IMG/VR virus record: IMGVR_UViG_2778261358_000001
From: a virus
Lineage: Duplodnaviria > Heunggongvirae > Uroviricota > Caudoviricetes
Reading direction: 5' to 3' (one strand)
Length of the DNA: 13,563 nt
The first letter of the stretch is position 1. Each line of letters opens with the position of its first letter. Shown piece after piece: positions 1 through 3,000 of the stretch. Position numbers: made by a program.

Positions 1-3000
1 GTATCAGCACCTGAATCCGCGATTATCCCATATACCTGGTTGCTGATCGCCCCTCCGCACAGGGGGATTCACCATGCAGAAGTGTTTTTAATAAACAGCA
101 AATAAAAAAATCAAGCATTATGCAGGCTGTTTCTTTTTATCACCGGCCACAGCAATACCACAATGCCGCAGACCAGCACCCCATCCGCCAGCACCGACAT
201 GATTCTGCTGGTGAAATCCACCATCACCACCAGAAACAGCAGGAGTGCAGCCACAGCCAGGCGCAGTTTTACCGTCACTGGTGATTCTCCAGACGAAGAC
301 CCAGAACACCGGCAATCTCTTCCAGCACCTTGCGCTCTTCCGGCTCAATTTCGCCGTCTGCCTCCGCAATGGCCACCGCCACATCCAGCACATCTTCCGC
401 TTCACGCGTATCGTGTTTCACATCTTCAATTTCACGCAATGCCGCTCGACGACCAATTTTAAAGTTCGTATCCAGCTGACCGATAATGGTTGCGCTAATC
501 GCATTAATTTCTGACGTAAACGCGGACAACGCAGGCTGGTTACGCAAGACCTGCTCGATCTTCGCTTTCTCTGAAGCCTCACATTCACCATCTGCATAGG
601 CCACCAGATAGGCAGCATTAATAACCGCCTGTGCCAGATCACGTTTCTCAAACTTTTTAATTTCCACTGCCGCTCGGCGGGCTTTTTTACCAAAAATACC
701 AAACATCGTGACGTTCCTTTGGGTGGGTGAGCCAACGCCCGGGAGCGATCTGCCCACAGAGAAAGTCACACTGACCACTCCGTAAGCTCACCCCCGAAAG
801 GCTCTGTGGTTGATATGCGCCGGGCGTGGCGCAGATACAAAAAAAGCCCGCCGAAGCGAGCCTGATAATAAATCTGGAGCGGGTAGCGGGAATCGAACCC
901 GCATCATCAGCCTGGAAGGCTGAGGTAATAGCCATTATACGGTACCCGCATATGGTGCCGGCTACCGGAATCGAACTGGCGACCTGATGATTACAAGTCA
1001 GTTGCTCTACCATTGGAGCTAAACCAGCATGTTTGGCGGGACAGCGTGGACTCGAACCACGATAAGAAGGTTAACAGCCTTCCGTAATGACCTTTATACG
1101 ACTGACCCAAATAAAAAAAGCCACCGTTGCAACTTAAGAGTCACTAACGGCAGCTTACATCTTTAAACGGTATGATATTTCATTCTGGCTGCCTCAAAAG
1201 CCGCAGCGGCAAGTTCGGCAGTGTCATGGTATCCAAGGTTAATACACTTTCCAGACGCATTAATTCTTGCTCTCCATTTCCCGTACTTAGCATCCCAAGA
1301 CACGCCACGGTATCCAGATTTATTATTCTTCTGAATTTTCCTGTTTTGCATATTTTCGGAATGAGTGACAAGACGAAGATTTGATATCCGGTTATCTGTT
1401 CTTACCCTGTTGATGTGATCAATAAAACCATCTGGCATGGTGCCATAAACAATCAACCATGCCAGTCTGTGAGCAGGGTATGCTTTACCATTAATCATAA
1501 TCATTAAATACCCATCAGAATTTATTGATGAGCATTTCTTGAAAGCAAAACGAGAGTTCCATGTCAAAGTGGTCCTCTCTCTCCCCTGCCTCCACCTCCA
1601 GTGAAAGTCGCCTGATGATGGATTGTAATCAACAACAGAAAGCACCATTTCTGGCGTTAATTTTATTTCTTTCATCGCTTTACCTTAGGGATAGAGCCTG
1701 TTCGCGTAGATATGACAGCCAAGAGCGGAGCGATGTTTCCACCACCATATCTCAGGCCCATATCACTAAGACTCTTGTTTTGATTGCACGCGAATGCAAA
1801 AAAGCCCACAGGAGGTGGGCTTGTGATGGTTGCTGAATGCAAAAGCAGCAGCATATGTGAATATTATGGCTAAATGGCTAATTGCATGTCAAGACTTTTA
1901 ACAGCAACATGCTTAACTTTCTCAACACGTTTACGCATTTTGAAAGCATTTTGCATTGGTTGGTACAAAACAAATAATGACGCTTTCAGGATATCGTCAA
2001 TTTCGTTTCTACAGGTTGCCAGTGAAGGTTTTCTCCATCCCTCGCCACCGCGTCCACACATCTTGCGTGGCTTTGCAGTCGCGTGATAGTAGGATGCAAT
2101 TGCTCTCTTAGATGAACCATGAGCGTAGTAGCTGAGGAGGATGCCAAAGGCTTTCTTGTCAATGTACATGACGGAATCGACGACCTGAGAAATCAACATT
2201 CCATCATCATCATTGCACATTGGTCTTGTCATAACTCTTCCCGGCTCTACGCTCTCCATGAACTTCGCTATTACGCTGCTCATGCGCTTTTCCAGACGAC
2301 CTGAATAAACCCATGCGCCCCACAGTTCAAGCCAGCCATTCAGCCAATCGTGCTGTTCTTTGGTGAGGTTTGGTTCTCTTATGCCCATGCGACTTCTCCC
2401 TTGTTATCTGGAATGGTTTTTACTGAGAGCGTCATGCGGCCTCACTTCTGCTGTTTCGCAGGTCTTTGAGTTTCTGTTGGTACTCTGCCTTGATGGCCCT
2501 GCACTCTTCGACAGTCCAGCGATGGCGGTTATGGTTTGATTCGATTTCATCTACTGCTTCCTGCCCGATGCGGCTAATCAGTTCGACGCGATACAGAACG
2601 AGATTTCCGCTTTTGTGCTGGTTGCACACCACGCATTGCTTGTGAATATTGCGTTCATCAAATCGGAGTTGAGGTGCCGCAGCAGTTGTCCGGTAATGTC
2701 CGGCATCCCACTGAGCAGACGTGAGCGTTCCGCACGAGATACATGGTAAGTCGCGGTCTCTTTCTCTGACGAAGGCGTTTACGGCTTGTTGGGCTTGTTT
2801 AATCCAGTAACTGCGGGGCTTTAAGGCGAGTTTTCGAATCTTCAGTTTATCTTTCTGTTTCTGCTCCTCTCGTCGTCGTTTCTTCTCTGCTGCTTTTTCC
2901 GCTTTTTCGCGTTCTTTACTTCGTCGTTCGAGTGCTAATTGAGTTCCGTGTTCCGGGCAGCACCACCACTGATTTGAGAATGCCGGGTGAAACCATTCCT

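Follow-up and report, generated by a model that had tools for sequence, protein, structure and literature searches.

Two adjacent substitutions in the anticodon stem of a lambdoid phage tRNA-Thr(UGU) gene and their possible link to resistance against the nuclease P2-OLD

The IMG/VR virus record IMGVR_UViG_2778261358_000001 (Caudoviricetes) provides a stretch of DNA of 13,563 nucleotides (nt), referred to here as the window, which contains mainly early and nin-region genes of a lambdoid prophage. A tRNA-Thr(UGU) gene with an unusual anticodon stem is located on the minus strand of the window at positions 953 to 1028, between genes for tRNA-Asn(GUU) and tRNA-Gly(UCC) and downstream of the antiterminator gene Q and the late promoter pR'. 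The gene is 76 nt long, including an encoded CCA end, and was identified with Rfam, with ARAGORN at a 90% threshold, and from annotated identical copies. Its full sequence, read on the minus strand, is GCUGGUUUAGCUCCAAUGGUAGAGCAACUGACUUGUAAUCAUCAGGUCGCCAGUUCGAUUCCGGUAGCCGGCACCA, and RNA positions are numbered such that nucleotide n corresponds to window coordinate 1029 - n. Identical copies are annotated as tRNA-Thr in the RefSeq records of phage JLK-2012 and Escherichia coli UTME-3. The gene is thus already public as a tRNA-Thr, and what appears to be new is the possible link of this allele, which has U42 and C43 in the anticodon stem (the UC allele), to P2-OLD, a tRNA-cutting defense nuclease. 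No description of the UC allele or of its link to OLD was found in the literature.

Covariance-model scoring was proposed as a check in a preliminary description of the window, which had placed a tRNA-like gene at these positions without stating a strand. The model RF00005 (cmscan) bore that placement out with a full-length match (1-71) of 49.0 bits (E = 4e-8; gathering score, 29), in which the anticodon stem was marked with two non-pairs at its top and the T stem with one. ARAGORN with default settings skipped the gene and reported only the neighboring tRNA-Gly(UCC) and tRNA-Asn(GUU); at the 90% threshold (-ps90), it reported tRNA-Thr(tgt) with the anticodon at position 34 and a 7-nt loop. 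The sequence, the cmscan alignment, and ARAGORN all give UGU, which reads ACA, as the anticodon (nt 34 to 36; positions 993 to 995, minus strand). The anticodon loop has U33 and A37. The acceptor stem has seven pairs, two of which are G.U, and the D stem has four. The preliminary description was therefore right about the acceptor arm, the D arm, and the CCA end, but its good T arm has an A52.C62 mismatch. The same mismatch is native to the functional thrU of E. coli K-12, and for that reason it was ruled out as a sign of decay. The identity set of E. coli threonyl-tRNA synthetase (ThrRS), which we take to be G1-C72, C2-G71, G35, and U36, is kept, as is A37, the pairs and bases being read from the sequence. 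When features of pseudogenes were checked, there was no truncation, the acceptor, D, and T arms and the identity elements were retained, and the anticodon stem was weak. Judged by its sequence, the gene is a real threonine tRNA gene.

The gene has two sources. Nucleotides 1 to 26, which comprise the 5' acceptor strand and the D arm (positions 1003 to 1028, minus strand), are those of the tRNA-Thr(UGU) of phage 21, according to the alignment and the variant table, and are also identical in the tRNA-Thr(UGU) of Sf6, BTP1, and many P22-like and lambdoid phages. Nucleotides 27 to 76, which comprise the anticodon arm, the variable loop, the T arm, and the 3' acceptor strand (positions 953 to 1002, minus strand), are derived from the host gene thrU, and differ from the 76-nt thrU of K-12 by four substitutions, G42U, U43C, A49G, and U68C. 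The crossover lies within the stretch from G18 to A26 that is common to both parents (GGUAGAGCA), and the sequence thereafter is that of thrU. Downstream, the spacer TAT and a glyT-like tRNA-Gly form part of a Thr-TAT-Gly module that is common in Escherichia prophages, being present in more than 120 IMG/VR contigs and at about 1,100 places beyond the host locus in complete E. coli genomes. Because the first 26 nt are of the phage 21 type and the remainder is thrU followed by this module, the sequence identifies the gene as a recombinant in which a phage 21-type tRNA-Thr has been joined to host thrU from a prophage-borne copy. In another contig (L078), the same phage 21/thrU hybrid has an intact stem and a 3' part that is exactly thrU, and the glyT there is almost that of the host. 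The window tRNA shares with host thrU its length, the anticodon loop CUUGUAA, the variable loop AGGUC, the T loop, and A52.C62. It differs from thrU in the 5' 26 nt, with the D loop CAAUGGUA and A16 rather than U16; in A49G and U68C, which preserve pairing; and in G42U and U43C, which unpair the top of the anticodon stem. Within the anticodon arm, the adjacent change of GU to UC at nt 42 and 43 is the only difference from thrU and from L078.

As the preliminary description had noted, the anticodon stem forms only three of its five pairs in the standard register (A31-U39, G30-C40, and U29-A41). The mismatches, C28.U42 and A27.C43, leave A27 and C28 (positions 1001 to 1002, minus strand) and U42 and C43 (positions 986 to 987, minus strand) unpaired. 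The same description had attributed the UCAUCA tandem at nt 39 to 44 (positions 985 to 990, minus strand) to a 3-nt duplication that might expand the loop. The tandem is present, but it arises because GU became UC and not because UCA was inserted. The gene is of equal length with thrU, with the L078 gene, and with 26 distinct relatives, and both cmscan and ARAGORN place a 7-nt loop. A 3-nt insertion or duplication was ruled out, as the 76 nt are colinear with E. coli thrU and with the intact-stem gene of L078.

A slipped register, also pointed out previously, does exist, in which C28-G45, U29-A44, G30-C43, and A31-U42 form a 4-base-pair (bp) stem with a 10-nt loop. Nearest-neighbor energies for the whole cloverleaf were -17.2 kcal/mol for this register and -14.3 kcal/mol for the 3-bp register, a difference of about 2.9 kcal/mol in its favor; the minimum free energy structure from RNAfold was uninformative here because the cloverleaf was not returned even for authentic thrU. 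Engineered tRNAs with 8- to 10-nt anticodon loops can read longer codons, and mismatches at 27-43 can loosen wobble rules. These precedents, together with the energies, favor the idea that the tRNA adopts the slipped register and departs from normal decoding, with frameshifting or extended wobble as examples. Nevertheless, the slipped register would use up A44 and G45, leaving a 3-nt variable region and removing core tertiary contacts, and a sister allele with C42 (described below) would lose the A31-U42 pair. Comparison with relatives gives the register no support, since there is no covariation and all relevant columns are invariant, and the absence of any insertion relative to thrU and the 7-nt loop found by both programs also argue against it. 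It therefore seems very improbable that the slipped register with abnormal decoding explains the gene. Expanded-loop tRNAs such as sufJ and the yeast mitochondrial tRNA-Thr1, which has an 8-nt loop (PMC4267643), resemble the window tRNA only in the unusual appearance of the anticodon arm; nucleotides are inserted in their loops, and none is inserted in the window tRNA.

The positions that are changed are of particular interest because of recent work on P2-OLD, the effector of the classical interference between phages P2 and lambda (Govande et al., Nucleic Acids Research 2025; PMC12445682). P2-OLD is switched on when the lambda protein Gam inhibits RecBCD, and it kills mainly by destroying the thrU tRNA, which is cut between nt 28 and 29 (after C28) and after C40 in paired CNG motifs, formed in thrU by the paired CUG/CAG of the anticodon stem (nt 28 to 30 and 40 to 42) (PMC12445682). 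Phage tRNA-Thr(UGU) genes, including that of phage 21, which was tested explicitly, rescue by resisting cleavage. This resistance maps to the anticodon arm and requires an altered CNG motif and a shorter stem together; none of U43A, G30C/C40G, and C28U/G42A suffices by itself, and overexpressed wild-type thrU gave little or no protection (PMC12445682).

In the window tRNA, both published factors are present because G42U alters the CNG motif (3' CAG to CAU) and unpairs C28, the base that precedes the first P2-OLD cut in thrU (site 1), while U43C unpairs A27, so that the stem has 3 bp rather than 5. The gene thus has the sequence features of the OLD-resistant class, in that it is phage encoded, has the anticodon UGU, has an altered CNG motif, and has lost the 27-43 pair. 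Mismatches at the top of the stem are also found in other rescue tRNAs: G27.A43 in phage 21, A27.A43 (through U43A) in Thr6, and U28.U42 in T5. The best explanation, in which we have about even confidence, is that the window tRNA would be a functional, nuclease-resistant phage replacement for host thrU; P2-OLD is the nuclease that best fits this explanation. From the sequence, we infer that this allele would resist cleavage, be charged by ThrRS, and decode ACA. Both readings offered in the preliminary description, a decaying pseudo-tRNA and a tRNA with an expanded loop, are weaker than this one.

The tRNA-Thr of phage 21 ("tRNA-Thr21" in PMC12445682), which was protective against P2-OLD in experiment, occupies the same slot after pR' and the terminator tR', directly after an identical tRNA-Asn, an arrangement also found in Sf6, BTP1, and others. 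It shares with the window tRNA nt 1 to 26, the UGU anticodon, and the unpaired 27-43. It differs in its stem, GUCGC/GCGAA (U28-A42, C29-G41, and C31-G39, with one mismatch), and in the variable loop, the T arm, and the 3' acceptor strand, whereas the window tRNA is thrU derived from nt 27, retains CUG as the 5' strand, and carries two mismatches in tandem. The coliphage tRNA Thr6 is thrU-like (12 differences) with a UGU anticodon, and its resistance likewise maps to the arm, with an alteration of the CNG motif and loss of the 27-43 pair (PMC12445682); compared by its published description, it differs from the window tRNA in having a G30C/C40G pair swap together with U43A. The T5 replacement tRNAs have the same anticodons, and the T5 tRNA-Thr has U28.U42 and the string C40-A41-U42-C43 in common with the window tRNA, although its sequence is otherwise unrelated. 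Compared with the published resistant class, the window tRNA is a phage/host chimera and takes a different route: its arm comes from the host and carries mismatches in tandem, in place of the pair swaps and single mismatch of that class.

The distribution of the UC allele was determined with several scans. Its anticodon arm (ACUGA-CUUGUAA-UCAUC) was detected in 29 contigs in an exhaustive scan of IMG/VR (2.9 million viral contigs) and in 6 more contigs in a metagenome scan. Among 185,579 species-representative genomes, the single match was a contig of Escherichia albertii whose length and match position equal those of one of the IMG/VR viral contigs, and the allele was not seen in any of these species' own chromosomal thrU. 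In Escherichia prophages, it is found on at least seven different 5' halves, including pure thrU, the phage 21 hybrid, the D-loop variants AGCAGGCA, AGCAGGUA, and AUCAGGUA, and acceptor stems bearing U2 or U3, and in approximately 10 flanking contexts, the upstream neighbor being Asn, Arg, or a methyltransferase gene and the downstream neighbor Gly, Arg(CCG), or Arg(UCU). Nearly all phage 21-type hybrids carry it (25 of 26). The sister allele, C42 C43 (UCACC), was found in two contigs (L276 and L277) on two thrU-like backgrounds, and in it both top pairs are again broken. Scans of the viral contigs for every other state of nt 42 and 43 turned up no allele with a change at just one of them. UC and CC are thus the only non-wild-type states, and position 42 is never able to pair with C28. 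In an anchor-based sample of about 118 modules, which was not conditioned on the arm, 113 had an intact stem, UC and CC occurred once each, no other stem position varied, and two further loci had the anticodon UUU.

Of 5,426 complete E. coli genomes, 7 carry a copy identical to the window tRNA, as does phage JLK-2012, and a variant with one different base in the acceptor stem (U68) occurs in 6 genomes of the O55:H7 type. Across the family (26 distinct members), every acceptor helix is 100% paired; the pair changes are C2U, C3U, C6U, A5G, and A5G with U68C, and the lineage of the window itself has gone from G5.U68 to the improved pair G5-C68. Eleven of these 26 members have lost the pairs 27-43 and 28-42, both at once. 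Arm positions 29 to 41 were invariant in the 26 variants, but that part of the arm was fixed in most of the source scans. The pattern at nt 42 and 43 suggests a specific, tolerated double change on a molecule that, as far as its sequence variation indicates, is otherwise constrained.

The main rival, and a serious one, is that UC is a neutral or mildly deleterious damaged allele. According to this explanation, a tandem mutation in a dispensable prophage thrU drifted and was shuffled by recombination, and the tRNA would be weak or dead and its gene an early pseudogene. We consider this unlikely, but a number of observations favor it or weigh in other ways against a replacement function. The allele is rare, accounting for about 1% of ordinary prophage thrU-glyT modules in the anchor-based sample, and matches to the window's version were found in about 25 of the 5,426 complete E. 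coli genomes, compared with about 1,100 prophage-borne copies overall. Rfam scores fall stepwise from thrU (73.8 bits) to the intact hybrid of L078 (58.6 bits), the window tRNA (49.0 bits), and its U68 variant (47.0 bits), with the phage 21 tRNA-Thr at 61.5 bits. Default ARAGORN misses the gene, and no feature is annotated in the RefSeq records at the copies that differ by one base (U68). The isolated anticodon arm has a predicted free energy of 0, and a 3-bp stem with two tandem mismatches is marginal, so that the tRNA may work poorly. These prophage tRNAs have A9G, U8C, and D-stem mismatches at low frequency at conserved or paired positions, so that constraint is not absolute, and U8C in the adjacent tRNA-Gly hints at relaxed selection. 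The tRNAs are no more conserved than the spacers and tR', with mosaic breaks beyond, although this comparison is uninformative as a test of selection. A single mutational event, spread by recombination, may be the origin of every UC copy, and the population evidence would then amount to one or two events. With regard to cleavage itself, the 5' CUG strand is unchanged from thrU, and the slipped register re-creates a paired CUG/CAG (C28-G45, U29-A44, and G30-C43) through which, on the predicted structure, OLD might still cut the tRNA. In addition, the mutations that were tested, base-pair swaps and a single 27-43 mismatch, differ from the UC allele (PMC12445682).

Other observations argue against neutral damage. 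The change falls exactly on the two positions relevant to OLD, as would be expected for only about 2 of 75 adjacent dinucleotide positions. There is no further decay, the acceptor helix remains 100% paired, and the identity elements are intact. The allele persists on many backgrounds, the CC allele keeps both mismatches with no reversion, and variants of the stem with a single mismatch are absent. The preliminary description correctly recognized an anomaly, but the simple decay of its pseudo-tRNA is opposed by the many otherwise intact backgrounds, the paired acceptor helix, the retained identity positions, and the fact that the bases that changed are those tied to P2-OLD resistance (PMC12445682).

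A further explanation is that these genes are ordinary supplementary tRNAs, in which extra Thr(UGU), Gly(UCC), and Asn tRNAs would aid the translation of late or virulence genes in which the low-usage codons ACA and GGA abound, and the mismatches would be tolerated without a role. In most prophage Thr-Gly modules, the two genes match host thrU and glyT exactly or nearly so and the stem is intact, so that they cannot be nuclease resistant. Intact-stem modules such as those of L149 and L078 likewise consist of Thr, the 3-nt spacer TAT, and Gly in lambdoid late regions, but have G42 and U43 and hence would be OLD sensitive by the published rule. Related arrays add Ile and Arg tRNAs, as in Shiga-toxin phages, and codon compensation is the classical explanation of phage tRNAs (PMC10264068). 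Supplementation leaves unexplained the joint change at nt 42 and 43, the fact that the pair is never restored, and the match to the OLD rule, and the little or no protection afforded by overexpression of wild-type thrU indicates that supplementation and resistance are separable (PMC12445682). Codon supplementation accounts for the existence of the module but not for the paired change, and as an explanation of the window allele it is improbable.

If the window tRNA is an OLD-resistant replacement, the course of events might be as follows. The Gam protein of a lambdoid phage would block RecBCD and thereby activate P2-OLD, which would cut thrU after C28 and C40 and bring ACA decoding to a halt. 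The phage tRNA-Thr(UGU), in which cleavage site 1 would no longer lie inside a helix because the stem is 3 bp, would then take over from the destroyed host tRNA. Its source would be the Q-dependent late transcript of the lambdoid prophage, which would run from pR' through tR' and the tRNAs to a terminator, and with this location the tRNA would be available at the time of need. Among sequenced phages that carry an identical tRNA cluster, JLK-2012 is the closest; it encodes exo, bet, and gam, and because Gam is among these products, phages of its type should trigger OLD.

The neighboring tRNA-Asn(GUU) and the non-U16 D loop may also blunt AriB, the nuclease of the PARIS system. AriB cleaves between C40 and A41, with U39, A41, and U16 as determinants, and targets the tRNAs for Lys(UUU), Thr(UGU), and Asn(GUU) (PMC12409363). 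The window tRNA-Thr has A16 rather than U16, with U39, C40, and A41 unchanged; the tRNA-Asn has C39, and there is no tRNA-Lys in the window. Compared with the T5 tRNAs, the window tRNA-Thr keeps the AriB site (U36-A-A-U-C/A41), and escape from AriB would need the A16 of the D loop. Any PARIS effect of the window tRNAs is speculative because the tRNA-Thr keeps UAAUC/A despite A16. A combined explanation, in which the tandem change would make a captured thrU immune to Toprim nucleases (P2-OLD and perhaps PARIS) and the unconventional arm, in either the 3-bp or the slipped register, would also alter decoding, for example, through looser wobble or frameshifting at ACA, appears quite improbable.

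The locus has further features. Q is encoded on the minus strand at positions 1870 to 2388 (Pfam Phage_antitermQ, 1.3e-25), and a pR'-like late promoter (TTGACA, 18 nt, CATAAT), recognized from its sequence and its homology to phage 21 pR', is located at the end of Q (positions 1863 to 1892, minus strand). The late-leader terminator tR' (positions 1109 to 1156, minus strand) was recognized as the homologue of the terminator annotated in phage 21, and relatives share this stretch with 100% identity. It is followed by tRNA-Asn(GUU) (positions 1034 to 1108, minus strand), which according to ARAGORN, Rfam, and the alignment is the tRNA-Asn of phage 21. Its stem, GAAGG/CCUUC, has no CNG motif, and both this and C39 in place of U39 are unlike the host tRNA-Asn features stressed in work on OLD and AriB. 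On the other side of the tRNA-Thr gene, tRNA-Gly(UCC) (positions 875 to 949, minus strand; ARAGORN, Rfam, and comparison with glyT) is like host glyT with C6U/G67A, U8C, and A38G. The first of these is a compensatory change from C6-G67 to U6-A67, A38G lies in the anticodon loop, and U8C affects a nearly universally conserved position. Sister copies of this tRNA-Gly have other changes in the D stem or anticodon stem. The CAG/CUG of the glyT stem matches the P2-OLD CNG motif and is unaltered in the window tRNA-Gly. An intrinsic terminator-like hairpin with a T-run, apparent from the sequence, is located directly after the tRNA-Gly gene (positions 844 to 863, minus strand). A tRNA remnant from a prophage attachment site was also considered for the tRNA-Thr gene and ruled out, because the gene is full length and is located in the late leader after Q and not beside int.

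Between pR' and tR', a 690-bp cassette (positions 1158 to 1847, minus strand) with an open reading frame for an HNH_3+AP2 endonuclease (positions 1163 to 1675) was delimited from blastn junctions against JLK-2012 and phage 21 and from Pfam matches. The cassette is situated about 8 nt past the pR' start, between the sigma-dependent pause region and tR' and upstream of the tRNAs, and has its own terminator-like hairpin at positions 1802 to 1822. It is present in E. coli UTME-3 and absent from JLK-2012 and phage 21. HNH genes are likewise scattered among the tRNA genes of T5. After the tRNA cluster and terminator, a TerB-family gene (positions 275 to 778, minus strand; TciA in JLK-2012) occupies the place of the holin gene that directly follows in phage 21. 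Positions 1 to 103 (minus strand), cut by the window edge, match the gammaproteobacterial small RNA STnc100 in Rfam exactly at the gathering score (47 bits), and an STnc100-like element also directly follows the tRNA cluster in another contig (L057). On the plus strand, a eukaryote-like Ser/Thr protein kinase gene (positions 11342 to 12388; Pkinase, 2.2e-46) is located between cI (positions 9710 to 10417) and N (positions 13044 to 13427), the same placement as that of stk in JLK-2012.

Related prophage arrays contained two further kinds of altered tRNA. Two IMG/VR contigs (L290 and L333) have a thrU-bodied tRNA beside a glyT-like gene in which the anticodon UGU has become UUU (Lys), together with A26G, and its sequence makes it a possible anticodon-switched tRNA for AAA. 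Host tRNA-Lys(UUU), which has this anticodon, is the main PARIS target and also an OLD substrate. In L130 and L146 (E. coli O121 strain 201805972), the tRNA-Thr is followed by a gene with a glyT-like body and the anticodon UAC (Val) that has a one-base deletion in the 3' acceptor strand and no CCA; the RefSeq annotation for L146 is a 71-nt tRNA-Val.

If the window tRNA is indeed resistant to P2-OLD, it would represent the smallest natural escape from this nuclease so far, with no more than two neighboring substitutions in an anticodon arm that otherwise matches the host's. The same backbones with an intact stem and the C42 C43 sister allele provide natural matched controls, with which the two-factor rule of CNG alteration plus stem shortening would be testable on natural alleles, and the tRNA would show how far an anticodon stem can erode before translation fails. 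There would also be a warning for annotation, in that tRNA finders would lose counter-defense tRNAs precisely through their adaptive mismatches. Furthermore, temperate lambdoid phages, and not just large lytic phages such as T5, would turn captured host tRNA genes into counter-defense genes, and the route of conversion would be recombination of a captured host tRNA with tRNAs already present in phages.

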